This document shows, piece after piece, positions 2,571 to 64,000 of a DNA stretch of 64,000 nucleotides. The translations under genes were made by a program, and so were the position numbers. Positions within the stretch are counted from its first letter, which is position 1; every line of letters starts with the position of its first letter. Under the pieces are notes generated by a model. It had not been told where the DNA came from. It did not search any database and was given only the letters and a program-made list of their open reading frames with translations. This DNA is from a virus (lineage: Duplodnaviria > Caudoviricetes), in IMG/VR virus record IMGVR_UViG_3300021426_000067. The stretch is one strand, 5' to 3'.

Positions 2571-3677
2571 ATGGGAGAAGAAATAAAAAATAAAAATGCG
2601 GGCTTTGAAAATAAAAGACCTTATCCTTTATTAGATAAGACTATTAAAGACCCGCATGAACGTAATGAAATAGTCCATAAAATAGTTGCGGAAGTCCCCC
2701 CAGAAAAATTAACTCCTTATTATTTAGAATAGCTTACCAAATATTTAACAGAAACTCCTGATACAAAAAAGGCGCGGACAGTTTTAACTAACAACCGCAT
2801 GGTTACTGTAACTAAGCGTGAAACTTCTTATGAAGGACTTATTTCAAAATTGGAGAATGGTGAAGATGGTATTTATAATTTTATGACAGGTGGCGATAAA
2901 AATATTTTATTGGTTCCAAAAATACAAATTACAGAAAATGATATAGAGACAATTCCAGGTTTAAAATAGTTAAGAGAAGAAATAAAAAAAGTTGAAGCTA
3001 AACAAAAGACAGCAAAGGGAAGACAAAAATATTTATTAACAAAGCAATTAATTGAAATGCGGCAAGACCAATACGTTTTAAAAAATATTTATAAACCGCC
3101 TATTACAATGATGAAAGTTACAAAAAATCTTCATCAAATTGATTTAAGTTAGCACGTTACGACTAATGAAAAAGGAGAGCCAGAAAGTCATTGTGCTGTG
3201 TCATTTTTTAATCCAGATCATGTTTGTTATCTTTTGTGCAATTATTCTAAAATTAAGGAGGATTGCTGGGGTCATTTTGATAGCGATTGGTGGTATTTCA
3301 TGGAAGACTTTGATGCTCTTGTTGATAGAGCATTAAAAGAACAACATCCTATTTTATATGATATTATGATTTATAAAATTGATGGAATGTTGAATAAAAC
3401 TATATCAGAAAAGATTCAAGAGAAATATGATGCTTATTATACTGTTGAGCATCTTTCCAGTATATGGCGTAAGAAAATACCTAAAATAATTGCGGAAAAG
3501 GCAAAAGAAGAATGGCTTTTATGGCATTACACTATGGAAGAAAAAGGGCATTGGAAAAGATGCTCTCGTTGCCATGAAATAAAATTAGCTCATCCTTACT
3601 TTTATACAAAAAATAAAACTTCTAAAGATGGCTGGTATAGCATGTGTAAATGTTGCAGAAATAAAAAGAAAAATTAA
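2571..3677 (+). CDS. putative sigma-like/HTH transcription regulator with C-terminal Zn ribbon (3 in-frame TAG)
   Basis: 368 aa with TAG read-through; AGGAG RBS; region-4-like segment and CSRC...CKCC. Confidence 0.55.
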
Positions 3678-3716
3678 GGGCGAAAAATCTAAATTTATAT
3701 AGAAGTTTTTTAAAAG
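3678..3716 (+). promoter_or_regulatory. putative phage late-promoter motif (degenerate copy)
   Basis: GGGC-N9-AAA-N13-TTTTT; same spacing as other copies. Confidence 0.45.
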
Positions 3717-3743
3717 AAAAAGAGAGAAGAAAGGAGGCATTTT

Positions 3744-5084
3744 ATGGCATTAAAGATAAAAGGACAAGTGGAAGATGCCAATGGGAAATGTAAATGTTAG
3801 AGATGCGGTAAGCGGATTGGTCAAATAAACTTTTATACTTATAAAGATGGTAGTAAATGTGAAATTTGCAAACCTTGTTTAACCGCACATATAGATAACT
3901 TTGATCCTACTACTTTTGAGTGGATTCTCGAAAAAATGGATGTACCTTTTATACCTACTGAATGGAATGTTCTTAGAGATAAGGCTTTTGCTAAAGACCC
4001 TTATAAAATGAATGGTATGTCTGTTATTGGAAAATATCTTGCAAAGATGAAATTAAAACAATGGAATAAATATGGATATGCAGATACTCCAAAAATTATG
4101 AAAGAGATGGAGTAGGAAGAAGAAAGAAAGAGAGTTGCTCAATAGACAGAAAGACTTCGCCATGAAGCTGAACTTAAAGTTAAGTTAAGTGAAGGAAAAA
4201 TTTCTCAGGCTTAGTATCAAACTCTTGTTAGCACAGAGACTCAAAATAAAGAGTTGGCGCGATGGGGTAATGCAATTACTGGAGAGCACTTAGGTCAGCC
4301 TGGATTCCAAGTTCACGGTTCCCCGCAATCTTATGCAGAAGCATTAAGTCGAGCAAAAAATCCTTTTCAATAGCAAAATTTCATGTCAGAGAGTTAGTTG
4401 ATTGACCCTGGCGCGGATTTAGAAAAAGATGAAAAAATGTATCTTGCGATTAAATGGGGAAGACTTTATACTCCCGCTCAATGGGTTGCTCTTGAGCAGT
4501 TGTATAATGAATTTATGAACTCTTTTGATATACAGGGCGCCGCCAGAATAGATACTTTGAAAAAAATTTGTAAAACATCTTTAAAGATGGATTAGGCTAT
4601 AGATAGCGGCGATATAGATTCATATCAGAAATTATCAAGAGTTTATGACACTATGATGAAATCCGCAAAGTTTACAGAAGCGCAGAATAAAGATGGTGAT
4701 GGTAAGAATATTGATTCAGCTTCTGCTATTGTAGATTTTGTTGAAGCTCATAGCGGACAAATTCCTCGCATGAAAATTGAAGAGCCTTTGGATATAGTAG
4801 ATAAAATTATTTTTGATTTAAAATCTTATACTCGAAACTTAATTTATGATGATCCTTCTCTTGCTCAAGAAATTGAAAAATATTTACAAGATAAAAGAAT
4901 TTCTGAACAAATGAAAAAAGATAAAGAGGAGGCTGCAGCTAAAGGATTAGATTATGTTCCATTGGAAGATTAGGATATGGTAGTTTATAAAGATACTTTA
5001 AGACATATGTCTGAAGAAGATAAAGAGTTAACTGATGAAAAAATCGAAACAGACTATGGGAAAAGGAGAGTACAACCTAAATGA
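3744..5084 (+). CDS. putative terminase small subunit / Zn-finger protein (8 in-frame TAG)
   Basis: 446 aa with read-through; N-terminal CxxC/CxxC; ATGA overlap with the large terminase. Confidence 0.55.
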
Positions 5085-6817
5085 ATTTAAAATAGTTATT
5101 ACAACTGTCTTCTGATAGAGAATATAAAAAACAAGGATTATCTGAAGAAAGATTAACTGCAGATATAGATGAGTTAAGAAGAATAATTGCTTTTTTTAGA
5201 GAGTATCCTGATATTTTTGTAGATTTTATTAAAGGCAAAGACAGTACCTTTAATTTTTTATTTTATCAAAGAATTTTTCTTAGAAATGTTATGCGGCATA
5301 GATATGTATATGCAACATTCCCTCGTGCTTATTCTAAGTCTTTCCTATCTATGATGGCTTTAATGATTAGATGTATTCTATATCCTAATTCCCATTTATT
5401 TGTAACAACAGGTGGCAAGGAGCAGGCAGCTTCTATTACTGTTGCTAAAATAGAAGAAATATGTAAATTAATTCCTGGATTAAATAATGAGATAAACTGG
5501 GATAGAGGTGTTTCTACTAAATCAAAAGATAATGTAAAATACGTTTTTAAAAATGGCTCAAGTATTGATATTCTTGCAGCAAGGCAATCTTCGAGAGGAC
5601 AACGTCGAACGGGCGGTCTGATGGAATAGTGTGTTCTTATTGATGGAGATATTTTAAATGAAGTTATTATTCCTACAACAAACGTTGATAGACGTTTATC
5701 AGATGGCAGCCGCCATAAAGAAGAGAACGTAAATAAATCTCAAATTTATATAACAACCGCAGGATGGAAAAATAGTTTTGCTTATCATAAGTTAATATAG
5801 ATTTTAATTAATTCAATAATATAGCCTGATTAGTATATGATAATGGGCGGAACTTATGAAACCCCAGTTATATCTGGTCTTTTGGACGAGAACTTTGTAT
5901 AGCAACTGCGCTTACAAGGAACTTTTAATGATTAGTCATTTAATAGATAGTACAGAAGTATTTGGTCAGGAGATGTAGAAAATGCGTTTTTCTCATCTGA
6001 AAAATTTGATAAATATAGAGTTTTATTACAACCAGAATATTAGTATAGCGGACGCTCATCTAAAAATGCGTATTATGTATTTGGAATTGACGTAGGCCGT
6101 GTGGGTTGTACTACAGAAATTTGTGTATTTAAAGTAACTCCGCAAGTACAAGGAGCTGCTCATAAGACTCTTGTTAATATTTTTACATATGATGCAGAAC
6201 ATTTTGAAACTCAATGTATTCATATTAAACATTTATATTATAAATATAAACCTAAACGAATTGCGGTTGATGCGAATGGATTAGGAGTTGGTTTAATTGA
6301 TTATTTAATTAAGTCTCAAGACACTGAGGATGGATAGTATTTACCTCCTTTTGGAGTTTTTAATACTAATGATTATCCTGAATATAAAAAGTTTGTAACT
6401 CCTGAGACTGTTAAAGATATTTTATTTTTAATCAAAGCTAACGCGCCCATTAATACTGAAGCATATAGCTATGCTCAAACTCAAATGTTTAGTGGTAAAA
6501 TTAGGTTTTTAATAGATGAAGGACAAGCTAAAACTAAATTAATGGCTACTAAGCAAGGGCAAAATATGAATATGGATGAGAGAAATGAATATTTAAGACC
6601 TTTTATTTTAACGTCTATTTTAAAAGAACAAATGTTAAATCTTGTAGAAGAAAATGAAGGAGTTAACATTATTTTAAAACAAAGCAATAGAAGTGTTAAA
6701 AAGGATAAATTTTCAGCTTTTATATATGGATTATATTATATCCGATATGAAGAAGAATTAAGTAAAAAACGAAAGAAAAGAAATATATCAGACTTTTTAT
6801 TTTTCACGCCAAGTTAA
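5081..6817 (+). CDS. terL: terminase large subunit (10 in-frame TAG)
   Basis: 578 aa with read-through; PRAYSKS Walker A, RG...GGLME*C Walker B, ITTAG, GIDVGR nuclease motif, DANGLG, KDKFSA. Confidence 0.9.
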
Positions 6818-6857
6818 GGTCAAGTTTTATTAATTCAATACGCGTTTTTTTATATAA
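6818..6857 (+). promoter_or_regulatory. putative phage late-promoter motif
   Basis: GGTC-N9-TAA-N13-TTTTTATATAA. Confidence 0.55.
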
Positions 6858-6875
6858 AGATAGAAAGGAGAAAAT

Positions 6876-7238
6876 ATGCGTGCATCCAGAGGAGAAATAA
6901 AAATAGAAGAAATTTTAAAAGAGTCTGGGTTAGAGTTCGCAGAAGAATACTCTTTTCCAGATTTAGTAAGTAACACAGGCCGCCCATTAAGATTTGATTT
7001 TGCGGTTTTTGATGATTAGCATAATCTTGATTTTTTAATTGAATTTCAAGGAATACAGCATTATGAAGCAAAAAGTAAATTTGGTGGGATGAATGGATTA
7101 AGAAAACAACAATATAATGACATGAGAAAAAGAGAATATTGTCGATAGCATGGGATTAAACTGGTTTTAATTCCCTATTGGGAATAGGCTATAATTACTT
7201 ATGATTATATTCTTAATGCGGCTTGGAATACAGATTAA
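6876..7238 (+). CDS. PD-(D/E)XK restriction-endonuclease-like protein (3 in-frame TAG)
   Basis: 120 aa; SRGE..IEEIL, LRFDFAV, LIEFQGIQHY, IPYW; absent from the standard-code ORF track. Confidence 0.75.
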
Positions 7239-7254
7239 AGAGAGGTATTTAAAG

Positions 7255-8847
7255 TTGATTAATCGAATGGCTTAGATAAAGAAAAAAGGCTTTAATATGC
7301 CGATTGAAACTGAAGAATACCAAATTCCTGAAAGTGCGAATGGATATGTTCCTATTGACTTTTCAAAAATTCGAGTGGGAGTAAAAACCTTATCAGATGC
7401 CGTTTATAAATTAGGAGATTTTCAAAGAATAAACCCTCGATTAGCAGATAAACGTCAGGTTTTAGAAGCTATTCATTATGGGGATTTAGAAAGAATGAGA
7501 GATATTTCTAATTATTTTTATAAAATCAGTGGTATTTATCAAAGGTTATGTCGATACATGGCATATATGTATAGATATGATTGGTTAGTAACTCCTTATT
7601 ACAGTGAGACTATGAAGCCAGAAAAAATAAAAGAAGGTTTTATGCAAACTTTAACTTTCTTAGATAAGTTTGAAGTAAAACGTTTCTTTGGTGAAGTTGC
7701 ATTAAAAGTAGTTAGAAATGGTTGTTATTATGGATATTTAATTGCTAAGAATGGGACAGTAGTAGTCCAAGAGCTGCCGCCCAGATATTGCAGATCCGTA
7801 TACATATCATCAAATCGGGAGCCTGTAGTTGAATTTAATATGAAATATTTTGATGATGCTTTTCCTTCTATTGAGTTAAGACAAAGAATCTTAAAAATCT
7901 TTCCTGCGGAATTTGAAAAAGGATATAAATTATATAAACAAGGGAAATTAAAACCTCAATATCCTGGAGATTAGGCTGGATGGTATTTACTTGAAGTTGG
8001 CTCTGTTATTAAATTTAATTTTAATGGGGAAGATTTTCCTCCTTTTATTGCAGTAATTCCCGCCATAATAGACCTTGACGCTGCGCAAGACTTAGACCGT
8101 AGAAAAATGGCACAACAATTATTGAAAATAATTATTCAAAAAATGCCTATTGATAAAAATGGTGATTTAATATTTGATGTGGATGAAGCTCAACAACTTC
8201 ATAATAATGCGGTTAAAATGCTTTCTAAAGCTATTGGTATAGATGTTTTAACTACTTTTGCGGATGTTGATGTGGCGGATATGGCTGATAATAAAACTTC
8301 TACTACAACAGATGAATTAGAAAAAGTTGAACGTACAGTATACAATGAAGCTGGTACTTCCCAAATGTTATTTAATACTGATGGAAACATCGCTCTTGAA
8401 AAATCTATTTTAAATGATGAGGCTTCAATGTGGAATTTGATTCAACAGTTTGAAACATTTTTAAACACTCTATTGACACCTTTTAATAAAAGTCCTAAAA
8501 AGGTTACTTATAGAGCGCAAATTCTTCCTACTACAATTTATAATTATAAAGAATTAGCTAAACAATATAAAGAACATACTCAATTAGGTTACTCAAAAAT
8601 GTTACCGCAAATTGCTTTAGGTCAATCTCAAAGTGCTATCTTAACTACAGCTTACTTTGAAAATGATGTACTTGATTTAGTTAATGTATTTATTCCTCCG
8701 CTAATGTCCAGCACAATGAACGCAGAAGTTCTCAATAGAGGAAAAACTGGAGAAAATGCGAATGGAAAAGAAGGCGCAGGAAGACCTGAAAAAGCGGATG
8801 ACCAAAAATCAACAAAGACTATTCAAAATCGTGAATCTATGAATTAA
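7255..8847 (+). CDS. portal protein (2 in-frame TAG)
   Basis: ~530 aa from TTG start with GAGGT RBS; fragments 7297..7974 and 8107..8847 share a frame; lies between terminase and protease. Confidence 0.8.
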
Positions 8848-8872
8848 GTCAGAAAATTTTTCCAAAAATTTT

Positions 8873-8913
8873 GGTCGGAAGTTATTAAAAGATTTGTTTG
8901 AATTTTTATATTA
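8873..8913 (+). promoter_or_regulatory. putative phage late-promoter motif
   Basis: GGTC-N9-TAA-N13-ATTTTTATATTA. Confidence 0.55.
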
Positions 8914-8940
8914 TATGAAGAAATAAGGGGGACTTATTTT

Positions 8941-10278
8941 ATGCACCAATCAGTTGCAACAATAGACTCTCCTCAATTCTTAAATCTTCAACCTCTTGAT
9001 ATTAACCCTTTAATGTCAAAATGTGAGATAAAAGTTCTTTATGTAGGAGCTAATAGAAACCGTAGTTTTATTACGGAAGAGGTTGCCGCGGAAATGGGTA
9101 AAACCTTACGTGGCGCGCCTATTGTGGGTTATTATCGTAAGAATAAGGAAGATTTTACAGATCATGGAGAAAAAGTTATTATTGATGATGAAGGAGTAAA
9201 GTTTGAGTGTCAAACGATTCCTTATGGTTTTGTTTCGCCAGATGCTAAAGTTTGGTTTCAAGATTTTGAGGATAATGATGGAATGGGTAATACAGTTACT
9301 CGTAAATATTTAATGACAACTGGTTACCTTTGGACTGGCCAATTCCCAGAATCCAGCTTACCTGTGGAATAGGGTCGTCCGCAATCTATGGAACTTTATG
9401 AAGATTCTGTTAAAGGATCTTGGCAAACAAATTATGATAAAGGAATGGACTTCTTTATTATAAATGATGCAATTATTCAAAAAATTTGTATCTTAGGAGA
9501 CGATGTTGAGCCTTGCTTCGAAGGCGCTTCTGTAACGGCTCCAGATGTAAGTACAAAATTTACATTAGACGACAAATTTAGGCACACACTTTATAGTATG
9601 ATGCAAGAATTAAAGAGTGCCTTAAACGGAGGAGGACAACAGATGGAAAATCTTGAAAACACTGTAACTGCTGAAGAACCTGTTGTTGATTTTACTCAGG
9701 AAAATGCAGCTACAGAAGTTGATGAGAACAAAGATGCTTCTATTCCCGCTGATTTCGTCAAAAAAGATGATGAAGAAAAAGAAGAGAAAAAACCTGCGGA
9801 AGAAGAGAAATCTTCAGATGAAGGAGATAAAGAAAAAGATTCTAAAGATAGTTCTGATGATAAAGAAGATGACGATGATGAAGATGATAAAAAGAAAAAA
9901 GATCAGAAATATGAACTTCTTGAATCTAAATATGCGGCTTTATAGGCTGCATATCAAACTCTTCAAGCCCAATGTGCAGAACTTATTGATTTCAAAAAAT
10001 CAATAGATAATCAGCGTAAGGATGAACTTATTGCAGAATTTTATATGCTTTCTGATGATGATAAAGCAGATGTTATTCGCAATAAATAGAAGTATTCTTT
10101 AGATGAGATTAAAGCTAAATTAGCAATTATTTGCTTTGATAGAAAAGTTAGTTTTAACCCTTCAGAACAGAAAAAAGAAGAAGAAGTTGTTACTTATTCT
10201 TTAAACAATAATGAAAATAACAGTCAACCAGAATGGGTGAGAGCTGTTAAAGAACAAGAAACACTACTTGGATATTAA
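8941..10278 (+). CDS. prohead protease/scaffold protein (3 in-frame TAG)
   Basis: 445 aa; NRNRSFI, PIVG, DF.DH, GYLW, QSMEL, CILG..VEPCF motifs, then an acidic coiled-coil region. Confidence 0.75.
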
Positions 10279-10299
10279 TCTATTAGGAGGATGCTAAAA

Positions 10300-10899
10300 A
10301 TGGCAATTGTAATGAAAAGAATAGGTTATGGACAGGTTGAGCCTAACCACCTTTCTGGTATTGTGACTGGTCAAATTTATGCTCAATTACCTGCTCAGAT
10401 TGCTACAACAACAGGTACAGGAGATACTGCCGTTACTACTATAACTCCTATTGCTCAACTTGAGCAAGGACAATTTGCAAAATATGATTATGCAAATGGC
10501 GCGGTTAACTTTACCGGTGATGGTGAATTTATGCTTGTCTATAATGAAGAAAAACTTTATGATGAAAGACAACAACATCATAAGGATTTCGTTTATAAAG
10601 CTACTGATTTTACTGATGGAAAATTATTCCCTCGTTTAATCAGAACTTATGTTGGAGATATTATGACAACTAATACCCTTGCTACTGCTAATACTTCCAA
10701 TGTTGCTGAGGTAAATTCTTCCCTTAGCGTTTCCGTTGGTAATTATCTGACCGTTGATTCAAACGGTTTCTTAGTAGTTGCTCAGTCTGGCAACTCTGCT
10801 GCTACTACAATGCCTTCAAGTGGTATGGTTTGGAAAGTTGTTAAAGAATACACAATGCCAGATGGACAACCTGGTATTAAAATTCAGAGAGTGCAATAA
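10300..10899 (+). CDS. head decoration/minor capsid protein
   Basis: AGGAGG RBS; GYGQVEPNHL motif; directly upstream of the major capsid gene; no TAG. Confidence 0.6.
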   Translation: MAIVMKRIGYGQVEPNHLSGIVTGQIYAQLPAQIATTTGTGDTAVTTITPIAQLEQGQFAKYDYANGAVNFTGDGEFMLVYNEEKLYDERQQHHKDFVYKATDFTDGKLFPRLIRTYVGDIMTTNTLATANTSNVAEVNSSLSVSVGNYLTVDSNGFLVVAQSGNSAATTMPSSGMVWKVVKEYTMPDGQPGIKIQRVQ

Positions 10900-10922
10900 T
10901 AAGGAATAGGAGGAAATAGAAA

Positions 10923-12011
10923 ATGGCATTAACAAGAGATCAACTTATTGAGTTAGCCAGAGCCAATGCGAGAGCTTCATTAAATCCTTCTGTCGCTTAC
11001 TCTTTTGGCGGAGAAAAACTGTCAGCAGAGGCACTGGATAAAACTTTTATTAAGGAGTTAAATGAATTAGGTGCAACTCCTCAAGCATTTAGAGAAAATA
11101 AAAATCTTATTTATACATTAATTGAAGTAAGCCTTACAGAGATTCTTCCGCCTAAGGTTCTTCAAAGCTACGGTCAATTCGCGGATGTTCAAACTTTTGC
11201 TCAAGGTACAAAACCTGTTTATAAAGTTAGAATTAGCGAGGCTTCTAAGAAACGTGCTAAACAATTCGTTACAAGAGTTGGTTTAGCTGGTCGTTATGAA
11301 GTCTTCAAACTTGATGGATATTCACTTGAAGTTCCTACAGCAGCTTTCGGAGGAGCTTCCAGGGTAGAATGGGAAGAACTTCTTGATGGTCGTATGACAA
11401 TGAGCGATTACTACAACTTAGTTCTTGAAGGAATGGACGAAGCTGTTTATCGTGAAATTGCGAAAGCTCTTGAAGCTACAGTTGCTGGTATTAAACCTGC
11501 AAATAAAACTGTCCAAACTGCTTTTAATGAAAAAGCTATGGATCAATTACTTATGACTGCAGATATGTATGGAAAGAGTTCAATTTATTGTACTTTTGAA
11601 TTTGCGGCAACTATGATTCCTGCAGCAAATAGTGGTATGTGGTCTGACAGTATGAAAGAGCAAATTTGGAACAATGGCGCATTTGCAAATTATAAAAACC
11701 ATTCAGTAATTATTCTCCCTCAATCTTTCACAGATGAGACTAATACTGAAAAAGTCATTGATCCTTCTTATGCTTGGATTATTCCTAATGGTGCGGAGAA
11801 ACCTGTAAAAGTTGCTTTTGAAGGTTCAGCACAAGTTAAATCATTTGAGAACCGTGACTGGTCAACAGAAATTCAGACATACCAAAAACTGGGTGTAGCT
11901 ACTTACATGATTAATCCTGGTATTTGCGTATATCAAAATACTTCTTTAAAGAAAGCTATCCATTATCCAATTGGATCTGATAACTTCGATCCCGTACCAG
12001 TTAATCCTTGA
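10923..12011 (+). CDS. major capsid protein
   Basis: 362 aa, strong RBS, position after protease, followed by terminator; no TAG. Confidence 0.8.
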   Translation: MALTRDQLIELARANARASLNPSVAYSFGGEKLSAEALDKTFIKELNELGATPQAFRENKNLIYTLIEVSLTEILPPKVLQSYGQFADVQTFAQGTKPVYKVRISEASKKRAKQFVTRVGLAGRYEVFKLDGYSLEVPTAAFGGASRVEWEELLDGRMTMSDYYNLVLEGMDEAVYREIAKALEATVAGIKPANKTVQTAFNEKAMDQLLMTADMYGKSSIYCTFEFAATMIPAANSGMWSDSMKEQIWNNGAFANYKNHSVIILPQSFTDETNTEKVIDPSYAWIIPNGAEKPVKVAFEGSAQVKSFENRDWSTEIQTYQKLGVATYMINPGICVYQNTSLKKAIHYPIGSDNFDPVPVNP

Positions 12012-12032
12012 TGATTAAATAAAAATGTGAAT

Positions 12033-12065
12033 ATGGGGAGAATGAGTAATTCTCCCCATTTTTTT
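12033..12065 (+). terminator. rho-independent terminator
   Basis: ATGGGGAGAAT-loop-ATTCTCCCCAT + T-run. Confidence 0.85.
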
Positions 12066-12094
12066 ACTATAAGAGATAAAAGGAGTTTTTAAAT

Positions 12095-12667
12095 ATGATT
12101 AATAAAGATACATTAATAAAAGTTACTAATAAATATAATGGAACAGTGGGTTATGATGTTCCTGATTTAATGGTGCATAGAGAATTTTATCCAGGAGAGT
12201 ATAAAGAAATTACTTTTGAAGAATTAGAAAAACTTTCTTTTGCACCAGGCGGAGACGTTATTTTAAATCAATTTCTTGAAATTGATAATAAAGATGCGGT
12301 AATGAGTTTATTTGGAAAAGAACCAGAACCAGAATATTATTATACAAAAGCAGATATACAAGAGCTTATGTTGAAAGGTTCGTTAGACCAATTTTTAGAT
12401 TGTTTAGATTTTGCTCCAGAGTCAGTTAAAGAAATTATTAAAGACTTGGCGGTAGAATTACCTTTAAATGATGTAGCAAAAAGAGATGCCATTAGAGATA
12501 AAATGGGTTTTGATGTTTCAAAAGCAATTGAAATTAAAAATACTAAATTTGATGGCGGTGATGAAGATACTTCAGGAAATAAAACTCAGACAAAAAGACG
12601 TGCTCCCGCGCCTAAGGCGGCGCCCGCTCCATCAGGTCGTCGATACACTCCCGCTTCTAAAGAATAA
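12095..12667 (+). CDS. hypothetical virion-morphogenesis protein
   Basis: 190-aa ORF with RBS in the head operon. Confidence 0.6.
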   Translation: MINKDTLIKVTNKYNGTVGYDVPDLMVHREFYPGEYKEITFEELEKLSFAPGGDVILNQFLEIDNKDAVMSLFGKEPEPEYYYTKADIQELMLKGSLDQFLDCLDFAPESVKEIIKDLAVELPLNDVAKRDAIRDKMGFDVSKAIEIKNTKFDGGDEDTSGNKTQTKRRAPAPKAAPAPSGRRYTPASKE

Positions 12668-12688
12668 TTTTTTATAGGGGGTATATAA

Positions 12689-13246: not shown

Positions 13247-13270
13247 TTTTAAAATTGGAGGGTAAAATTA

Positions 13271-14623: not shown

Positions 14624-14644
14624 TAAGGAAGGAGGGCGCCGATT

Positions 14645-14794
14645 ATGGCAGATATTTCAGAAATTATCCTTCCTAACGGAAATCAATATGATTTAAAAGA
14701 TAAATTGGCAGCGCATGTTGTATTTTCATAGACTCAACCGACAACCCAAAAAACTGGTGACGTTTGGGTAATTATAGAAGAAGTTGAAACATAA
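14645..14794 (+). CDS. 49-aa protein sharing its N-terminus with 13271..14623 (1 TAG)
   Basis: MADISEIILPNGNQYDLKD...S*TQPTTQKTGDVW; GGAGG RBS. Confidence 0.65.
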
Positions 14795-24948: not shown

Positions 24949-24961
24949 ATTATGCTCCTTT

Positions 24962-52249: not shown

Positions 52250-55200
52250 ATGGCACAAGCATCAGGCGAAATTAAATATACGATTGGATTTGATGTCCAA
52301 AAACAAAGTTTAAATGATTTAAAGGCTTCATTAGAAAGCATACGTAAAATGACGTATGGCGATTTTATGAAGATTAATAATTCAAGTATAAAAGAAGCCA
52401 GAAAAGATTTTGCTGAAGTTTAGAAAACTATTAAAGTTGTTGAAACAGCTATGGAAAGTGCATTTAATAAAAAATTAAATACAGTTAACATAGATGCTTT
52501 TAATAGTAAATTAAAACAGAATTAGTTGACTCTTTAGCAAGTATATACAACTTTTAGTAAAGCTGGTGCAAGAGGATAGGCTTCTTTTAGAAATTTAACA
52601 ACAAGTTTATTAAGTGTTAATACTGAATTAAGAAAATCACATGAATTTTTAGATAAAGTTGCAAATACATTTGCAAATACAATAAAGTGGACCATTTCAT
52701 CTTCTATTGTTAATAATTTCTCTCGTTCAATCCAAGAAGCATGGGGATATACAAAAGCATTAGATTCTTCTTTAAATGATATTAGAATTGTTACTGGTAA
52801 TTCAGCAAATGAAATGGCAAGATTTGCGGTTTAGGCTAATGAGACTGCAAAAGCTCTTGGTAAAACTACAACTGATTATACTAACGCGGCTTTAATCTAT
52901 GCTCAACAGGGTTTAAGTGATGAAGAAATTGCAAAAAGAACCGAAATAACTTTAAAGACTGCTAATGTTACTGGGCAATCTACGGATAAAGTATCTGAAG
53001 AATTAACTGCAGTTTGGAATGGTTATAAAGTAAATGCAGATGAAGCTGAAGTTTATGTAGATAGATTAGCGGCTGTTGCGGCAACAACCGCTTCTGACCT
53101 TCAAGAACTTAGTACTGCGATGAGTAAGGTCGCGAGCGCCGCAAATGCGATGGGTGTTAGTGAAGAACAGCTTGCCGCGCAATTATCAACTATTATTTCC
53201 GCTACTCGTCAAGCACCAGAATCAGTTGGTACTGCCTTAAGAACTGTTTATGCACGTATTTCAGATATACAGGCCGGAATTGATGAAGAAGGGGTTTCTC
53301 TTGGTAACTATTCTGGAAAGATGGCAGAATTAGGTTTCAACGTTCTTGATATGAATGGTAAACTTCGTGATATGGGCGAAGTTATGGAAGAAATTGGTAA
53401 TCGTTGGGGCGATTTAACTCGTGAACAACAAATTTCTCTTGCACAAACTATGGCTGGTCAAAGACAATATTCAAATTTAATTGCATTATTTGATAATTTT
53501 GAACAATATAATAAATCTTTGACTACAGCTCAAAATGCAGCTGGCACACTACAAGAACAACAAGATATATATATGGATAGTATGGCAGCGCATTTAAAGC
53601 AATTAAAAGCATCTACTGAAGGTATTTTTAATAGTTTATTTGATGAGTAGGCAACGGATGGAATAAAAGATTTAGTAGATGGATTGTCTGGTGTTGCTGA
53701 TTTAATAGCCCAAGTTACTCAAGGATTAGGCGGTGGAATTGGAGTTTTACAGACTTTAGGAACAGTTGCTCTTCAAGTTTTTCAAACTCAATTAGCGCGA
53801 GGTTTAGCAATTTCAATAGAAAATTTTCAAGCCGCAGAAAGAAATGCTTAGGCTTTAAAACAATCTATTCAAGCAGCAGCAGATATTTCAGCTTAGTTAG
53901 AAAAAAGACGTTCTGCAGATCCTTTTAATGCAAATTTAGATTATACTAAAGATATAGTTGATAAATATCAATTTTTCGGAGATAATTCTCGTTTATTGAC
54001 ACAAGAAGAATTTTCGCAAGCTCAACAACTTTTACAGAAGCAAGGAGATATTAGCGGAAAAATATTAATTAATGATGAGGATATTGAAGCAATTGAAAGA
54101 GCCAGAATAGCTGTTTATTAGTTAATGGAAAGTGAATAGCGTTTTAGTAGTAGTGATGAAGTAGAAAAACATCTTTAGAAGCAAAAAGTATCCCTTTTTG
54201 GAGTCCAAAAAGAATTAAAAAATTTTGCATCAACTTGGAAAGATTTTAGTAATGCTTTAGAACAAGGAAATACTAATGATATTAATACTTATTTTGGACA
54301 ATTACAAACAATATTAACTAACTTAAAGACAAAAGTTGGTGCGGGAGGAATTTTTCAAGATATTCCAGATGCAGCAAAAAAAGCTATATATGCAGCACAA
54401 CTTGAATTTAATAAAATTGATTTAAGTGGTTCTGCAGACAGTATTAAAGAACAAACTTTAGCAATTTTTGGAAATTTATCTGCAGGAGTAAAAACATCAA
54501 TAGCAGAAATTAATGCTGAAATGGAAGTTATTAAAGGCACAGATTAGGCAAAATATAAAGAATTACTTCAACGAAGACAAGAATTAGAAAAATTATTAGC
54601 AGACATTTAGAAAGATAGACAAGCTCTTGTAAATACTACTTAGAATAGAATTAACACAGAAAGTTTAGTCAAAACAGTTGGTGGAGTTGCAAGTTTAGCA
54701 AGAGGAATAGCTCAAACAGGTCAAATAGTAAAAACTTTTTTTAATGACAATTTGACAGCAGGAGAAAAATTTACACAAATAATTACTGGATTATCTTTTG
54801 CTATTCCAATGTTGACAAAGGGATTTCAACAAGCTAAAGAAGCGGCAGTTACATTTTTTGGAGTAAGTTAGGCGATGGCAGGACCTGTTATAATAGCCAT
54901 TACAGCGATAATAGCGGTTTTTACTGCAATCTCTGAATATCAAAAACAAATATATTAGAATGAAATTAAAGCCTATGATGCCGCTATTGAAACTAACAGA
55001 GCAATTCGATAGGAAGCTGAATCTTATGAAGGTTTATATGATGCATTAGAGAAATTAAATGAATAGCAACAAGATCATATTATGACAAGACATTAGTTAA
55101 GAACTAAAATTGAAGAATTAATTAATGAATATGGTCTTGAAGGAGAAGCTGCTGAAAAACTTCGTAAAAATTATACAGATTTAAAACAAGGTATCATTTA

Positions 55201-58200
55201 GGCTCGTCAGTAGGCAGCAAAAACAGAATTTAATGCTGCTCAAGAGGAATTTAATGCTGCTGGTGGTAAATTCAATAAAATGGCTGATCATTATACTGAT
55301 TCAAACTTATTTGAAGGTGGACATCAGAGAGTATTTACTGGAAGAATGTCTGAAAGTGGAGATAGAGATATAGCAGATAAACTTTCTCAAATTCAAGGGA
55401 TAGAATCAAGTATAGACGGAAGCGGAATTATATCTCTTGAACTTAAAATGAGTGATTCTGTTTATGAGCGTTTTAAACAAATTGAAGAGATAAAAACAAA
55501 AATAAATGAATTAGAAAGTGAAGCTACAACAAGTGAGGAAAAAACTGCTTTATATAACAGTCCTCTATATACTCAACTTAATGGTTTCTTAACTAAATTA
55601 TAGGAAGGAACAGCAGATTATAAAACTTCTTTAGAAGCTATATAGCAAGCTACTGTAAATACTGTATTAGTAAATATTCCTGATTTTATGAATAATTCTA
55701 TTTAGGGCGTAAATAATTATTTAATTAACAGAGCAGAAGCTATCAAACAAGTAGAATAGGAATTAAAATAGCAAGGAATAGAACAAGAGGGATTAGCAGC
55801 AGAATTAGTTGATAAACAGTTATCTTCTAAATTTGGAGAATTATATGCGGATTATGGTAAGGCTGGAAAATTTATTGATGAATTAACTGAAAAATTTGGA
55901 AAAGATACTGATAAAATTCAACAAGAATTAGATAAATTAAACCCAAATCAATTGGAATATTTAATTCAATTACTTGATTTAAATCCTTCTATTGGGAAGA
56001 CTTGGGAAGATATATTATCTCTTATTGATAAGGTTTCCAAAAAAGAAGTTTCTGATTTGGCGATTAATCCAGATAATTTATCGGCTTTTCAAGAAATGGC
56101 TTCTTAGAAATATAGTTCTTTACAATAGGTTGAAGATAAAGTTAAAAGTGGAAAAAATTTAACTAAAACTGAATTTCAAAATTTAGGTTCTTTAGCTCCT
56201 GATTTAACAGATTATTTTAAACAAGCAATAAATGGAACATATGAATTAAAAGAATCTGCTCAAGAATTTTATAATGCGATTGATAAAGAAAAAGTTGCTG
56301 ATTTTGGAACTGCTTTAAGTACTGCTTATGACCAAATTGATAAAATAAAAACTTTAAAAGCAACTGGGGTGGATTATGAAGATGTAATGCAAAAAAATTA
56401 TTAGTCAGTACAGTCTATCCCTGGAGGACCTGATCAGGCTATTGGAATTAATGATGAATTAGTTCAAAAGCAATTAGATTATTTATAGGCGGTTGATGCA
56501 ACCAATAAAGAATCTGTTGATATGTGGAGATAGCAAATTCAAGAAGGTAGAGCAACTAAGGAAACTTATGATGAAATTTATCAAGCATTAGAAAGAGTAA
56601 AAGATCTTGGTGACCTTAATGACGCTTTAGGGGAAAATGAGAAAACAGCCAGATAGTTAGAACAAGCTATTCATGATGCTATGTTTCCTCTTGATGAAGA
56701 TGTTGATTCAAAAGCACTTCAATCTTTAACTGATACAATTCAAGGAATGGCTGATTCTTCAGCTGAATTAGCAGATATTTTAGAAGAAGATAAACGAGCA
56801 GCTGAAGATGTGTCAGAGTCTATTTTAAGATTTGACGATGCTATTCAAAATGTCGTAGATAGTTATGATGATTGGATGGGAGCGTTAACAAGTGGTGCTG
56901 TGGGAGAGCAATCTGAAGCAATAGATGGATTACGAGATGCTTATGCTGATTTATTAGATATGGATGCTTCTGCTTTACCTGAAAGTTTTTTACAAAGTGC
57001 TGAAAATCTTTAGTTGATGAAAGCTGCTATTGATGGTAGTGAAGAGGCTTATAATCAACTTCTTGAAAATGCTGCTCAAGCTATTTTATTAGATGTAGGA
57101 TTAGATACTGATCAATTTTATAGTGACAGAGATAATATTCAAACTGCTATGGAGTATTTAACAGGACAGGAGTTTGATGATATCGAAGTTGGAGCTGAAT
57201 TAAATGATGCTAATTTTTTAGCTGGTTTAGAGAATATTGTTAATGCGTCTGGGATGACCGCTCAACAGGCAACAGACTATCTTGCTGCTATGGGCGTAGA
57301 TGCAGAAGTTATAGAAGATACCAGCCGAGTTAGAGACATCCATCAATATACCGGTGCGAAACCAACCATTGAAGATAATCCTTTCCTTGGTACTGATCCT
57401 GCAACTGGAGCGCCAATGACATATCATTTCCCTACAGTGACTTATGAAACCGTTCCTTCTTAGGGTGAAGATATAAAAGAAAATTCTGCTTTTGCCTTAA
57501 AAGTAACTGCTGCTCATAAATCTTCTGGTGGTGGTTTTAAATTTAGAAATGCTGCAAATGGTGGTGGTTCTAAAGGTCAACAACGTAGAGCTGGTTCCGG
57601 TAAAAAAGGCGGCGGAGGTAAGAAAGGTGGAGGCGGGAAAGGCAAATCCGCACAACCAGATACCTCTAAAAAAGATAAGAAAAAGGAGATGGAAGATTAG
57701 CGAGATATTTACCATGATATTAATATTGAATTAGAGCAAATTAATAGATAGCTTGAAAGAACATAGAAAGTTCAATAGAGATTGTATGGTAAAGATCTTA
57801 TTGATAATTTAAATAAACAAACCGCAATCTTAGAAGCTCATAAAAAGAAACTTAAAGAAAAACAAGAACTTCAAAAAGAAGATTTAAAGAATCAACAAAA
57901 AAATCTTAAAAATCTCGGCGTTATGTTTGATGAGTATGGTAATATTGCCAATTATATGAGTGTTCTTGGTAATAAACAACTTGAGATTAATGCCAGAACA
58001 AAAGATTATAATGCTTTAATTGAACAATATAATAAATCAACTAATAAAGATGCTAAAAAAGCTATTGCTGACCAAGCTGAAGCTATAAATAAAGAAATTA
58101 AAAAAGCGGAAGACGAATATAAAGACCTTGAAAAGAAAATTAAAAACTATGATAAACTTCGTGAAGATATGGAAGATTTAGTTGATGAGATTGAAGAAGA

Positions 58201-60721
58201 AACTCAAAAGCAAATTGAATTAAATATTAAGAAGTTTAGAATGGAACTTGAAATCAGATTAGATATGGGATAGGCTGAACGAGATTGGAATAAGTTCCGC
58301 AGAGAAGTCCTTGAAGGCACTGATGTTCTTAAAGGTACTGAATTTGAGAAGATTTTTAAGGACGCCGCAAAAGACGCTACAGATTTAAATTCTTATTTTG
58401 ATGTTCACGGAAGCAAAGGAACTATATAGACTCTTACTGATCAACTATTAGCTACAAAAGCGCAGATTGACGCTATTAATGCCACTGGTACATCTGATAT
58501 TTATGGTGACAATAAAGCGCAAGCTATGTAGGATTTACAGAATGATCTTAAAGAATTAATGGATCAAATGGAAGAAGTTGAAGAGTTAATTAATAATATT
58601 GATGAAGCATATCTTGACACTATTGATGATGTTCAAGACCAATTTGATAAACAAATTGAAGATTATGAATATATTAATGATTTAATTGAATCTAATATGG
58701 ATTTATTAGAAATTATGTATGGTGAAAAGAATTATAATGCTATGCAAAATTATTATGATATGTTACAAAGAAATAATATAAGACAACTTGATTCATTAAA
58801 ACAACAGAGACAATTCTGGAAAGAACAATGGGATGCGGCAGTTGCTCGTGGAGACACGAACGCCGCAGAGAAATTTAAAGAAAATTATAAGGAAACTATC
58901 AAAAATCTTAATTCTTTAATTCAAGAATCTGCAGAAACTTTACAAGATAAGTATGTTAATGCTATTGATAAAATATTTGATGAATTAGATAAGAAATTAT
59001 CTAATGGTCATGGAACTGATTATTTAAATACACAATGGTAGTTAATGAATAAAAATGCAGACGAATATCTTGATACTATTAATACCGCATTTGCTATTCA
59101 AGAGACTGAAGATAAATTTAGAAAAGCATTAGATGATACTAAGAGTATTAAAAATCAACAAGCCTTAAAGAAATTAATGAATGAACAACTTGATATTTTA
59201 AAGAATAAATAGAAAGTTACTCAATATGATATTGATAGGGCGGAGAAGCTGTTAGAAGTAGAAAGAGCCAGAATCGCACTTGAAGAAGCGCAATCCGCAA
59301 AAACTTCTTTAAGATTAAAGAGAGACTCTCAAGGTAATTATTCTTATGAGTATGCGGCAGATAGTGGTTCTGTAGATGATGCTCGTTCTAATTTAGCACA
59401 GGCTCAAAATGATTTATATAATTTCGATAAAGAGCGTTATCAATCTAATTTGAATGATATGCTTCAGGCTTGGAAAGATTTCCAAAATGATTATAAAGAT
59501 ATATTAACTGATACTGCTTTAACTGAACAAGAGAGAGTTGAAAGACTTGCTTTATTAAGAGACGAATATGGTCAATATATCAATGATAAAACTGAAGAAA
59601 ATCTTAATATTAGAAATAATTTAAGAGAGTCTGCATTTGCCGATATAGCTGCATTATATAATACAGATGTTGCTAATTATAATCAAATGTCTCAAGATGA
59701 GCAAAATATTCTTATGGGAGATTTGGTTCCAGCATGGCAAAGTGGTATTCAAGAGATGTCAGATGCGGTTGCTGGTGAAGGTGGATTTATCCCTACCTGT
59801 GAAGAAGCATTTGAAGATATTGAAGAACAGACTCGTTCTTACCAAGATTCATTACAAGAATTAGCGGATGCTGCAGGTATCAATCTTGAGGATATTAGAA
59901 ATGGTGTTTCTAATTTAATAGATGAATTTGAAGTATTAGTAGAAGAAAATGATGATATTCTTAATCGCATGAGAGATTAGATGTTTGCTATTGAATCTTT
60001 AAAAAATCAAGCACAACAACTTGTTGGAGAATATAATAATGTTTATCAAGCAGCTGCTAATGCGGTTATTCAATTACATAATTTCGTACAAGCTGAACAA
60101 GCTGCTGCCGCCGCATATCAAGCTACTGCCGCGTCATATGAAAATATGATTCGTAGGATGCAAGCTGCTAACGCCGCCTATGCGAGAAATCCATATGGAG
60201 GAGGCATCTCTGGAGATAGCAGTTCTGGCGGTGGAAGTAGTTCCGGTGGTGGAGGAGGAAACGGATCCGGAGGAAGTGGATCTGGAAGTTCATCAGGAAG
60301 AAGTAGTAATTCCGCTTCTGGAAATAGGGGCGGTTATGCTTATTATACAGGTAGCACAGGTAAGGTTACTTATACAGGGCATTATAGATATGCTTCTGGT
60401 GGATATACTGGAGACTGGGGGAGTGATGACCCCAAATTAGCTTGGGTTGATAGAAAAGAGTTAGTATTAAATAAAGATGATACTAAAAACTTCTTAGAAG
60501 GAACTTATATTCTAAGAGAAATTTCTGCTTCATTAGAAGGTTCTTTAAGTAATCGAATGAACAATATTGGTATTAGATCTGTTAATTCTAAGGATAAAGA
60601 TGAAATTCAACAAAATGTGCATATAGATGCTACATTCCCTAATGTAGATAGTAAACGTGAAATCGAAGAAGCACTTAGTGATTTAGTTAATCTTGCCGCA
60701 CAAAGAGTATTACATAGATAA
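52250..60721 (+). CDS. tail tape measure protein (~2,820 aa; about 44 in-frame TAG by manual count)
   Basis: all long + fragments from 53120 to 60721 share a frame; TP901-like core (LNDIRIVTG, YAQQG, ESVGTALRT, GKLRDMG, AGQRQ); C-terminal ASGGYTG...KELVLN. Confidence 0.88.
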
Positions 60722-60937: not shown

Positions 60938-60938
60938 T

Positions 60939-60967
60939 TTGACTTTTGAAAAAAATTATGGTATAAT
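60939..60967 (+). promoter_or_regulatory. sigmaA-type promoter
   Basis: TTGACT-17-TATAAT with extended -10 TG. Confidence 0.7.
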
Positions 60968-61042
60968 ATCCATGAGGATAAGATAAAACATCTTGTCTAA
61001 AGGATTTTTATATCTAATTAAAAAGAGATATAAGGAGGAAAC

Positions 61043-64000
61043 ATGAGTATAAGTGAAAAAGTTTTAGATGCTATTTAGATATTAGCAGATAATTCTGTAA
61101 AAAAAGCAGATTACGATAGAACAATTCAAGCTCAGATACTTTCATGTGAAGATGCAACGATTGGTAAATATAGATGTCGTTATCAAGACGCAGTTTTCTA
61201 TGCTTATTCAAATAATACGGATATTACGTATAGTAATGGCGCATTGGTTTATATATTAGTGCCAGGTAATGATTTTAAGAAGGAAAAAACAATTCTTGGT
61301 ACAACTAAAAAATTAGGAATTAATTATATTACTCAGGCGGAAGGCGATTAGGCTTATGATATAATTGGAACTAATGGGATAGAAAATAGTCAAACTTTTT
61401 ATTTAGATACAAATTATGAATATGAGTATTCTATATATGAAGCAGAAGGCGAAAAAAGTATTGAATTAGATACCCAAGCCATAGAAAAATATATAAAAGA
61501 ATCTTCATCTATTATTGTCGGAGCTGCTATAAAAACTTCAATAAAAGCTGAAAGACAATTAAGAGGACATTATGGTATTGTTTATAATTTAAAATTTATA
61601 GATAATGCTACTGGAAAAGAAACTATTCGTTCATATACAATAGATGAAGATAATATGGTTGGAAATCCTTATAGATTATTATATCCTATTAGACAATACC
61701 AAATTTTTGACGTTGATGGTCCGAATTTTGTAAGAGTTGAATCTATTAAAATTTTTTGTAAGAGTTTCCCAGATAGTGTTCCTTTAGAAAATAACACTGA
61801 ACTTCATCCAGATATTGAAATTAGTCAGTTATAGTTAAATGGCGCTTGCCGCATGTCAGAAAGTTAGATTAATGGGATTGCAATTTCTTTTTATACTCCA
61901 CAAGGAACTTTCTTTCCACCGGGGACAAAAGGCGGCAATAAGCTGATCACCGCACAAGTTAGGGTAAAAGGAAAATTAGTTTCAGCAGATCAAAAGATTC
62001 CTTTCTATTGGGGAAAAGAAAATGTAGGAGTAACTCCAAGTAATCCTTATTATAATAAATACTTAGGACGTGGTTGGAAATGTATTAATAGTAAACAAGA
62101 ATTAGATAGTGAAACTTTTGAATGGATTTCTGGTAAAAATACATATGTTATTAATTTTGGAGAAGCTACCGCAAAAGATAACTGGTTAAAAGTTGCTATT
62201 GTATATGATGGTAATGTTATTAGTAAAAAAATTAATATTCAAAATTTAACAGATAAAATTTATCCAATAATTGAATCAAATGATGGAACTAAATTTTATT
62301 ATGATGTTGGACATCCAACTTTGACCGTAAAAATTATGTAGAAAAAAGACGGTGTAATAAAATAGATTGAAGATATAAGTCAATTTCAATATTATTGGGC
62401 ATATGAAGATAATACAGGGAATCTCGTTGAATTGCCTTAGATTTTTGGAACAGAAAGCCCTAATTATAAATATAATAAAGCTGTAAATGATTTAAATGAT
62501 TTAACCAATGATATTCAAAAAAATTATAATGCTGAAAATATTAGAGTATTAAATGAAACTCTTAAACAATATGATTTTATTCAAAGAGTTTAGGGGAATC
62601 AAATTCATGATGTTCAAATTAGAAACATAACTTCATTTGGTACTTTTAAATGCTCTGTTTTTTCAGGAGAATTATACATTGGAACCGCCCAAATTACTTT
62701 AACAAATACTTTAGATGGAGAAGGATTATATTCTCTTGTTATTAATAATGGTTCTGCGGTTTATCAATATAATGAAAATGGAGTCGCTCCTAATAATAAA
62801 ACTTTAGATAATCCTCAACAGATTCCTGCACTTACATTTACTGTATATGATAATCAAGGAAAACCGCTTGATTCAAATATGATTGTAAATGATAGTAAGT
62901 GTAAAGTTAGATGGAAAATTCCTTTAGGAAATGATACTTTATTAGTTGATAATATGCTTAAGACTCCTAATGATCCAAATCGTATTGAAACTGAATCATA
63001 TGTATATTATGATAAGGTCGAAACTTTATCTTATGGAATTGCTAATAAATATGATATTAAAAAGCAAAATAATCAGATTTAGCTTACTGTTGATTATAAA
63101 GGATTAAATTTAACAGCGAGAACTAACTTTACTTTTGCTAAACAAGGTGAACCAGGAACTAACGGTACTGAATATGTTGTTAAAATTGTTCCAAATACTA
63201 CAATGGATAATCCGCCATTATGGCCGATGATTACTAAGAAAGAAGGTGCCGGATATTAGATAAATTATGGTATAAATAGTTCTGCACCTATTTCTGAAAT
63301 AAATGAAGGTGTAGATAAAAAATTATTTAAAGCTCAACTTTGGCAAGATGGAGAAGAAATTTGGGAAGGTATTTCCAACGATGATGAATATAAAAATTTA
63401 AAAGTAGATCTTATTCATTGGGAAGTTTTAAAAAATATATATAATAAAAGTAATAATATTAATATAGAAGATTTTTCTGCTTTTCAGATACCTTCATAGG
63501 GGGATATTCAATTATCTCAATGGGAAGGAAATTTGAAAACACCTGAAGCTAATATTATTAAATGTAGTATTACTTATGGCGGACAAGGTAAAACTTACTA
63601 TGGGACTATTCCTATAATAACCGCGTGGGTTAAACAAGAAAAAAATGAAAAGAATGAATATAAAGAGAAATATAGAATTGGATTAAGAAATTTTACTGGT
63701 TTTAGACATGTGTTATATACTTCTGATGGCATAAATCCTCAATATGATAATTCTCATCCTTTTGAATTTTATTGTGAAGAATTAATTAAAAAAGAAGGTA
63801 CAGAAATTTAGACTTGGGAAGACGTTTCTAATGTTTAGGGTAGTCATCAAATAACTTATAAATTTTTTGCAATAGGAAATTATCAAAGTTATGATGAAAC
63901 ATATACTTCAACTAATGCAAACTTATTAACTATATTAGGAGAGGCTTACAGAAAAGGGCTAACTCCAAATCAATGCCCTGCTCGTCCAGCCGCAAAATAT
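61043..64000 (+). CDS. large tail/baseplate protein, runs off the window end (many in-frame TAG)
   Basis: AGGAGG RBS; single frame includes fragments 62879..63082 and 63533..63811; YDRTIQA, VYILVP, K.GEPGTNGT. Confidence 0.7.

Follow-up and report, generated by a model that had tools for sequence, protein, structure and literature searches.

In-frame TAG codons very probably encode glutamate in a lineage of ruminant-gut phages

The subject of this study is a 64,000-nucleotide stretch of DNA (IMG/VR record IMGVR_UViG_3300021426_000067; hereafter the window), part of a tailed phage, in which many genes are interrupted by in-frame TAG codons. An initial annotation had proposed from protein motifs that TAG is read here as glutamate and not as glutamine. 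The codon alignments computed for the present analysis agree, glutamate being the best-fitting residue against all eight whole related genomes. Based on these comparisons, we consider it very probable that in the phage lineage of the window TAG is a sense codon for glutamate and that TAA and TGA are the only terminators. Evolution treats TAG as a synonym of GAA and GAG in this lineage, also at strictly invariant glutamates.

TAG interrupts genes that are otherwise intact

We curated a set of 53 genes that covers about 90% of the window, the GC content of which is 31%. In-frame TAG codons number 144 and are spread over 26 of these genes on both strands, leaving 27 genes with none; the complete genes end in TAA (40 genes) or TGA (12 genes). 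The initial annotation had described more than 20 genes on both strands as broken solely by TAG, with 10 TAGs in the large terminase gene terL and about 44 in the tape measure gene, and these counts proved exact. Under translation table 11 the late genes are fragmented, and single full-length open reading frames (ORFs) result when TAG is read through. The fused frames contain no TAA, TGA or frameshift, their proteins are conserved, and along their whole length they align with relatives in which sense codons occupy the TAG sites. The read-through ORFs gave hits to the portal, terminase, tape measure, RecJ, AAA_24 and GIY-YIG families; most virion genes had no match in Pfam. Chance is excluded as the source of a 2823-codon frame free of TAA and TGA in DNA with this GC content.

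The TAG codons are real and not assembly errors. Sixty-five of the 76 sites first examined are also TAG in at least one independent IMG/VR contig. At position 5627 a T is read in contigs of independent goat DNA and bovine RNA-library runs, and a sheep-gut strain has a G at this position (giving GAG). These independent data gave no sign of the G-to-T miscalls that had been named as a possible source of the codons. Furthermore, the change is confined to TAG. Not a single in-frame TAA or TGA splits a homolog of a window gene in the eight whole genomes, and both codons stay stops, as the proposal of a TAG-only code had it. In two small genes a TAG stands two codons before, or directly before, the terminal TAA (15144-15146 and 29724-29726); these TAGs may be old terminators with a back-up stop.

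Codon alignments point to glutamate

To read the codons opposite each TAG, the window and the fetched loci were translated with X at TAG and aligned with BLASTP, and the codons were read back. The comparison set comprised eight whole relatives (G001-G004 and G006-G009), assembled from 20-kb pieces, together with some 130 IMG/VR contigs. Among contigs with 85-95% identity to the window, the partners of window TAGs included TAG (115), GAA (212), GAG (48), GAT (54), GAC (5), CAA (3) and CAG (0), so that glutamine codons make up 3 of the 330 non-TAG partners. GAA is two mutations away from TAG, and the pairing therefore reflects amino-acid equivalence and not mutational neighbourhood. In the reverse direction, TAGs of the relatives lie opposite E (214), D (46), Q (46) and K (42) of the window. 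When the majority partner was taken for each of the 144 sites, E led at 52 (with a further 17 ties that include E), followed by D at 11, Q at 10 and K at 9.

A likelihood test was also run, in which the residues facing window TAGs were compared with the substitution profile that each amino acid of the window shows in those alignments. For every one of the eight whole genomes E came out best, with a natural-log margin over Q of 10-73 (54, 69, 73 and 57 for G001-G004, 19 for G006, 44 for G008, 10 for G007 and 20 for G009). The leave-one-codon-out control placed 56/56, 55/55 and 54/54 sense codons with the right amino acid and, each time, TAG with E. The expectation under table 15, that TAG columns would be Gln in standard-code homologs, was not borne out in any of the eight comparisons.

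In the columns on which at least three of four distant genomes concur, E occurs at 8, Q at 2 and N, T and P at one each. Both Q columns have GAG, GAA or TAG in close relatives. They lie at 4593-4595 and 15476-15478; at 15476 three of the four distant relatives have Q and the fourth, the Gln-reading G009, has TAG. The two columns could point to an earlier stage of the lineage in which TAG still meant Gln, although two sites are too few to tell.

Several of the sequence contexts on which the initial annotation had relied could be evaluated individually. The TAG at 38485..38487 on the minus strand (KVFKD-TAG-NG), codon 166 of the AAA_24 gene, corresponds to GAA or GAG in 8/8 whole relatives, bearing out its reading as Glu. 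The terminase contexts at 5627, 5948 and 6041 held as well (see below). Others turned out to be non-diagnostic: the site at 33470 has a Q majority in relatives, the TAG at 7017 is shared by the four close relatives, the four distant ones having N there, and the site at 41372 is mixed. When the RecJ-like protein was aligned with PDB sequences, its TAGs fell at unconserved positions.

TAG occupies invariant glutamate positions in the terminase

The ten TAG sites of terL were compared with 10 standard-code relatives. Three sites are invariant E in these relatives (codons 183, 290 and 321), one is E in 9/10, four are an E/D mix, two are variable, and none is dominated by Q. More distant terminases were searched for among 1.8 billion protein representatives, with TAG entered as Q in the query to guard against circularity, which yielded 51 full-length terminases of 27-68% identity. 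The TAG at 5627..5629 on the plus strand (codon 183, GGLME-TAG-C) is E in 51/51 of them. Across 78 family contigs this codon is TAG (10), GAA (23) or GAG (8) in the Glu clade and GAA (6) or GAG (21) in standard-code relatives, and nothing else; independent runs show a natural TAG/GAG polymorphism at 5627. From the order of the motifs (PRAYSKS, GGLME-E, TTAG) it is plausible that codon 183 specifies the Walker B catalytic glutamate.

Similarly, the TAG at 5948..5950 (plus strand, codon 290, SFNR-TAG-YRS) corresponds to E in 10/10 of the standard-code relatives and, among the distant homologs, in 43/51. The TAG at 6041..6043 (plus strand, codon 321, QPEY-TAG-Y) is E in 10/10 standard-code family members and a K/E mix in the distant homologs. 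Pooled over the 51 distant homologs, the TAG columns of terL have E at.39, N at.11, K at.11, D at.08 and Q at.05. They track the E columns of the window (E.34, Q.05) rather than its Q columns (Q.28). No match to terL was found in PDB, by sequence or by profile. In a number of relatives (L120, L121, L145, L154, L156, L158, L160, L166 and L169-L171) the terL match spans 2.0-2.6 kb and not 1.7 kb, which suggests that terL is interrupted by inserts there.

Sister lineages read TAG differently

The relatives of the window serve as controls for the codon test. G006 and G008 have essentially no in-frame TAG, G006 ends 6/26 of its genes in TAG, and both use the standard code. The TAGs of G009 lie opposite window Q (49), K (18) and E (14), from which G009 appears to read TAG as Gln. 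Those of G007 (IMGVR_UViG_3300028805_000058) lie opposite W (27), F (8) and Y (5), and opposite W in 81/203 pairs with the standard-code genomes; by this comparison G007 appears to read TAG as Trp. No published TAG=Trp phage was found. For the phAss-type record G014 the same test gave Q as the best fit, consistent with PMC10607447. These data demonstrate that the codon test tells the codes apart (Glu, Gln, Trp and stop).

In a quick terL tree the window falls in a clade of 30 rows (SH-aLRT 100), of which 29 were typed E and one was unclear. When all loci were typed against the two standard-code genomes, 61 gave E, 5 Q and 2 W, and about 44 had no in-frame TAG. As judged from these assignments, the clade as a whole shares TAG=Glu; it comprises about 30 contigs with a terminase gene and 61 loci. 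One further contig, L140 (IMGVR_UViG_3300026549_000406), has E at 27/33 TAG partners and lies outside the main Glu clade on the same quick tree, among standard-code rows and the Trp-reading G007. This placement suggests more than one origin of TAG=Glu, or transfer of the tRNA.

A candidate decoding tRNA is conserved in close relatives

The 64-kb window contains no tRNA genes. In each of G001-G005 exactly one tRNA(CUA) was found, within clusters of 9-25 tRNAs, with scores of 45.8-64.7 bits for the Rfam tRNA model. It occurs in four versions, all of which have C1-G72, A73, U11-A24 and the anticodon loop CUCUAAA, and which lack the U1-A72 pair of tRNA-Gln. Phage tRNA-Gln genes have A or U at position 1 in 18/18 cases. 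For comparison, the identity set of E. coli glutamyl-tRNA synthetase (GluRS) consists of U11-A24, a U13-G22..A46 triple, absence of nucleotide 47, U34 U35 C36 and A37, with U34 and C36 as strong determinants (PMC9976931). Bacterial GatCAB needs U1-A72 and rejects G1-C72 (PMC2811023). The G004 version carries the full 'augmented D helix' set of tRNA-Glu (D stem GUCU/GGAC, A46 and a 4-nucleotide variable loop). The versions of G005 and of contigs L243 and L361 have D arms nearly identical to that of phage tRNA-Glu and 4-nucleotide variable loops; in the L243/L361 version this loop is probable and the T stem imperfect, and these two are tRNA-region contigs with too few informative TAGs for code typing.

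The Gln- and Trp-reading sisters have different suppressors. In G009 the tRNA(CUA) has a Gln-like body with U1-A72 and adjoins the genome's own tRNA-Gln genes, and in G007 it is a copy of the adjacent tRNA-Trp(CCA) (tRNAs at L214:10182-10354). The initial annotation had suggested looking for a CUA tRNA with Glu identity elements, a GluRS or a release factor. The tRNA is present in close relatives, one per genome in G001-G005, with the full D-helix set in G004; no GluRS/GlnRS domain (PF00749) or release-factor domain (PF00472) was matched in ten relatives. An anticodon-arm scan of species genomes returned 53 places, none with the tRNA of the Glu clade.

Several further features of the tRNA clusters were noted. 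The Gln- and Trp-type CUA tRNAs contain a hairpin in the variable region, the loop of which copies the anticodon loop of the cognate normal tRNA (G009 29464-29562, in L208; L214:10262-10354; L234, L235, L245, L259, L261 and L276). The loop is CUCUGAC in G009, identical to that of its own tRNA-Gln(CUG); CUCUGAA, UUCUGAA and CUUUGGA occur elsewhere, and GUCCAAA in the Trp type. The insert may serve to offer the synthetase a decoy anticodon arm, or it may reflect an alternative fold. The Glu-clade suppressors have no such hairpin insert. The exact anticodon arm GCGGU-CUCUAAA-ACCGC is present in 49 viral contigs of 5-309 kb (L231-L279, IMG/VR) on very diverse bodies (Ser-, Leu-, Lys- and Gln-like), and Acidobacteriota and other metagenome-assembled genomes (L308-L360, species genomes) have the same arm on Leu/Ser-like CUA tRNAs of the long-arm type. 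TAG may therefore have still further meanings in phages. UUA (ochre-reading) tRNAs are encoded at L090:7223-7297 (G003, Glu clade) and at 90065-90135 of the standard-code G006; despite these, in-frame TAA does not interrupt the homolog of any window gene in the eight genomes. At the end of the tRNA cluster of the TAG=Glu genome G004 lies a phage transfer-messenger RNA (tmRNA; L091:6804-7084, Rfam 101.9 bits, ARAGORN tag ADNYTYQMAA), which is noteworthy since this genome reads through a stop codon. No Rfam families besides tRNA and tmRNA were found in the tRNA clusters.

Gene layout, distribution of TAG and phage affiliation

The in-frame TAGs are distributed unevenly over the modules and genes of the window:

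2244..20493, plus strand: packaging and virion module; 14 of 19 curated genes with in-frame TAG, 56 TAG in total
5081..6817, plus strand: large terminase terL; 578 amino acids, 10 TAG
7201..8847, plus strand: portal protein; 2 TAG
10291..13246, plus strand: four TAG-free virion genes, probably the scaffold/capsid block; spanned by RNA-library contigs
16748..17500, plus strand: virion-module gene of 250 amino acids; 10 TAG, including a tandem TAG-TAG at 17111-17116
17533..18486, plus strand: virion structural protein; TAG-free
21899..51495, minus strand: replication and nucleotide-metabolism module, lying between two plus-strand modules
within 21899..51495, minus strand: NrdD, Pol III alpha, SF1 helicase, PARG-like (poly-ADP-ribose glycohydrolase-like), DnaB, NAD-dependent ligase, GyrA and GyrB; 0 TAG each
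31748-33520, minus strand: RecJ-like gene; 7 TAG
37933-38982, minus strand: AAA_24 gene; 4 TAG
40526-41392, minus strand: gene with 3 TAG
41653-42600, minus strand: GIY-YIG protein; 9 TAG
52250..60721, plus strand: tape measure protein; 2823 amino acids, 44 TAG
61043..64000, plus strand: large tail-region gene that extends past the window end; 13 TAG so far

TAG is dense in the terminase, portal, tail and tape measure genes and in some nucleases, and it is also present in four genes of the replication module (RecJ-like, AAA_24, GIY-YIG and the gene at 40526-41392). TAG-bearing genes have 13.7 TAG per 1000 codons, as compared with 10.9 for GAG. The TAG-free set (27 genes, 8665 codons, 0 TAG) consists of core replication enzymes and abundant virion proteins (10291-13246 and 17533-18486). 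The PARG-like gene of the replication module is of the microbial type (33587-34375), and a gene with a dATP/dGTP diphosphohydrolase N-terminal domain and one TAG lies at 24574-24948.

The source phage is a ruminant-gut phage of about 135 kb, similar to SPbeta, EF1 and phAss. A search of GenBank phage DNA with the window returned short matches only, in the gyrase gene. Its Pol III alpha shares 40% identity with the enzymes of two Enterococcus phages, EF1 and VRE9, and of Bacillus phages of the SPbeta type; the genomes of these phages measure 125-142 kb. Many relatives are present in IMG/VR, several of them complete at 133-144 kb with terminal repeats, and near-identical DNA was found in sheep, goat and bovine gut runs (14 studies, RNA libraries included). 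The nearest cultured phages have Enterococcus and Bacillus as hosts, and by analogy with them the host is probably a Bacillota bacterium.

A possible mechanism and its alternatives

Bacillota as a rule lack GlnRS and make Gln-tRNA with a non-discriminating GluRS and GatCAB, and their GluRS tolerates varied nucleotides at anticodon position 36. In such a host, GluRS would charge the phage tRNA(CUA) with glutamate, and the product would not be converted to Gln-tRNA, having C1-G72 in place of the U1-A72 that GatCAB needs. By the same logic, a tRNA with C1-G72 would keep its Glu and one with U1-A72 would be amidated to Gln, which may account for the different readings of TAG among sister phages. 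Genes rich in TAG would be fully translated only after tRNA(CUA) has accumulated, so that its accumulation would gate the late genes, a timing model that has been proposed for code-15 phages (10.1101/2021.08.26.457843).

A number of observations weigh against reading TAG simply as glutamate by this route. The tRNA(CUA) is known from close relatives only and not from the source genome itself. Its commonest version (G001-G003) is also less Glu-like, with a GUGG/ACAC D stem, G13/A22 and a 5-nucleotide variable loop. The CUA anticodon lacks U34 and C36, keeping only U35 and A37 of the tRNA-Glu anticodon set. Nearest-neighbour typing among 355 phage tRNAs was mixed (Gln, Ile, Met, Glu) and gave low scores, with a classifier that is 64-68% accurate. 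In the codon data, the per-site TAG signal in the leave-one-codon-out control is about half that of GAA and GAG, which would fit either sites that are less constrained on average or some ambiguity of decoding, and relatives have a Q majority at 10/144 sites; the comparative data may also be compatible with a mixture, for example mostly Glu with some Gln. Finally, the roles of a non-discriminating GluRS and of GatCAB avoidance in the host are putative, and release factor 1 (RF1) would have to be outcompeted.

The main rival concerns the mechanism and not the amino acid. It holds that the host itself reads TAG as Glu and that the phage tRNA merely boosts a rare host tRNA, so that neither a phage-driven switch nor competition with RF1 is involved. 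In keeping with this account, the phage relatives yielded neither a release factor nor any other anti-termination function, and code-25 phages on code-25 hosts have been seen (Borges et al., 10.1101/2021.08.26.457843). We nevertheless regard it as unlikely, though it deserves to be taken seriously. The use of TAG in the window is bimodal (0 in the 8665 codons of 27 genes and 13.7 per 1000 in the other 26), as in code-switching phages; all 5/5 relatives have kept their own tRNA(CUA); and species genomes with the same anticodon arm do not contain this tRNA. Moreover, sister lineages use the standard code, Gln or Trp, and the TAG=Glu contig L140 stands among standard-code rows. This variety of codes among sisters, together with the nesting of L140, points to a phage-borne determinant.

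A second possibility is that TAG is ambiguous, specifying Glu together with Gln or another residue, which could come about if transamidation is only partial, if the CUA tRNA is mischarged or if decoding is near-cognate. The halved per-site likelihood, the 10/144 Q-majority sites and the missing GluRS anticodon determinants (PMC9976931) are what such mixing would predict, and in E. coli tRNAs with a CUA anticodon tend to be glutaminylated (Borges et al., 10.1101/2021.08.26.457843). Against this, TAG swaps freely with GAA and GAG at invariant glutamates among close relatives (terL codons 183 and 290, AAA_24 codon 166), which would be costly if much Gln were inserted. C1-G72 and A73 speak against recognition by GatCAB and GlnRS (PMC2811023), and each relative has only one CUA tRNA. 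We consider ambiguous decoding distinctly improbable.

Ordinary code 15, with TAG as Gln as in crAss-like, Lak and phAss-type phages, has in its favour that Gln is the sole published phage meaning of TAG, that sister G009 and phAss-type G014 do read TAG as Q in the same test, and that a few window sites are Q in relatives. It was rejected by 10-73 log-likelihood units in each of the eight genome comparisons; the near absence of CAA and CAG partners in close contigs, the lack of any Q (0/51 homologs) at terL codon 183 and a Glu-clade suppressor without U1-A72 likewise argue against it, and we find it barely credible. Least credible of all is that the TAGs stem from artefact (miscalls of G as T, misassembly) or from decay, as pseudogenes of a dead phage: a single metagenome assembly does lie behind the window, but no support for artefact was found, the same TAG sites recur in dozens of independent contigs from many samples and in DNA and RNA-library runs, the frames are free of TAA, TGA and frameshifts and encode conserved proteins, and the matching tRNA is conserved in relatives.

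Glutamate remains the favoured meaning of TAG in the clade of the window. As a broader synthesis, which we put forward tentatively, a family of large siphophages from ruminant and human guts, with probable Bacillota hosts, may have come to use amber in at least three ways (Glu, Gln and Trp) besides stop, by means of a shared, efficient CUA anticodon arm placed on different tRNA bodies. TAG=Glu would then be an undescribed code of prokaryotic viruses, with a tRNA that is glutamylated by the host GluRS and escapes GatCAB, and the Gln and Trp versions would carry the hairpin that copies the cognate anticodon loop.

Comparison with known systems

TAG-recoded phages were reportedly described by Ivanova in 2014. 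In the published work cited here, TAG recoding in phages is TAG to Gln only (PMC9523058, PMC7886860, PMC10607447), and where the code of a phage differs from that of its host, only TAG to Q and TGA to W were seen (Borges et al., 10.1101/2021.08.26.457843). No report of TAG=Glu in phages or bacteria was found in the full-text literature, a search whose coverage excludes most subscription journals. The suggestion that a TAG-only Glu code in a phage might be undescribed accordingly stands for the literature searched, and TAG=Glu would add a natural variant to the genetic codes known so far. UAG=Glu is known from peritrich ciliates (table 30), from Blastocrithidia (table 31) and from ciliate PL0344, in which UAA is Lys (PMC10553269, PMC11687900, PMC12153298).

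The published view holds that only TAG to Gln and TGA to Trp are possible in phages, since only those host synthetases accept suppressor tRNAs. A Glu clade beside sisters that read TAG as Gln, Trp or stop would break that view, with the recoded meaning shifting between close relatives. There is also a practical consequence, as annotation with table 15 would place Gln where glutamate is invariant and probably catalytic (terminase codon 183, for example) and mistranslate hundreds of residues per genome. Furthermore, the constraints that GluRS, GatCAB and RF1 place on genetic-code evolution could be tested directly in this system.

A close parallel is offered by the code-15 gut phages (crAss-like, Lak, Agate and others; 10.1101/2021.08.26.457843, PMC9523058). 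These likewise have in-frame TAG in late and structural genes and TAG-free early and replication genes, a phage tRNA(CUA) usually without a synthetase, and code shifts over short evolutionary distances. They differ in that TAG is Gln there, as found by proteomics for two crAss-like phages, whereas the columns here are Glu. Also close are phAss-1 ('Phassvirus'; PMC10607447), EF1 and the SPbeta siphophages, with which the phage of the window shares a genome of about 135 kb, a tape measure protein of about 3000 amino acids, Pol III alpha and many tRNAs; the phAss-1 group also has TAG in the terL, portal and tape measure genes. The suppressor of a 138,252-bp phAss-type record has an anticodon arm identical to that of the Glu clade on a different body, and this record shares short DNA matches only with the window. 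Unlike the Glu clade, phAss-type G014 reads TAG as Gln, and its proteins are about 35% identical to those of the standard-code genomes of the family.

The eukaryotic UAG=Glu codes resemble the present one in turning a stop codon into glutamate by way of a suppressor derived from tRNA-Glu (PMC10553269, PMC11687900, PMC12153298). In contrast, they are cellular and have UAA reassigned too, whereas here the code is that of a bacteriophage, TAG alone is affected and TAA ends 40/52 genes. The indirect Gln-tRNA pathway (non-discriminating GluRS and GatCAB; PMC2811023, PMC9976931) shows how one tRNA family can yield Glu or Gln depending on U1-A72, and the Gln-reading G009 has U1-A72 where the Glu clade has C1-G72; that the pathway acts on the phage tRNA is our inference. 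The phage tRNA(CUA) is a candidate natural Glu-inserting amber suppressor for Gram-positive hosts. Its engineered counterparts are the E. coli tRNA-Glu amber suppressors of Kleina, Normanly, Abelson and Miller (1990), which reportedly insert glutamate at UAG and are said to be leaky towards Gln, whereas the phage tRNA is natural, conserved and would serve hundreds of codons.

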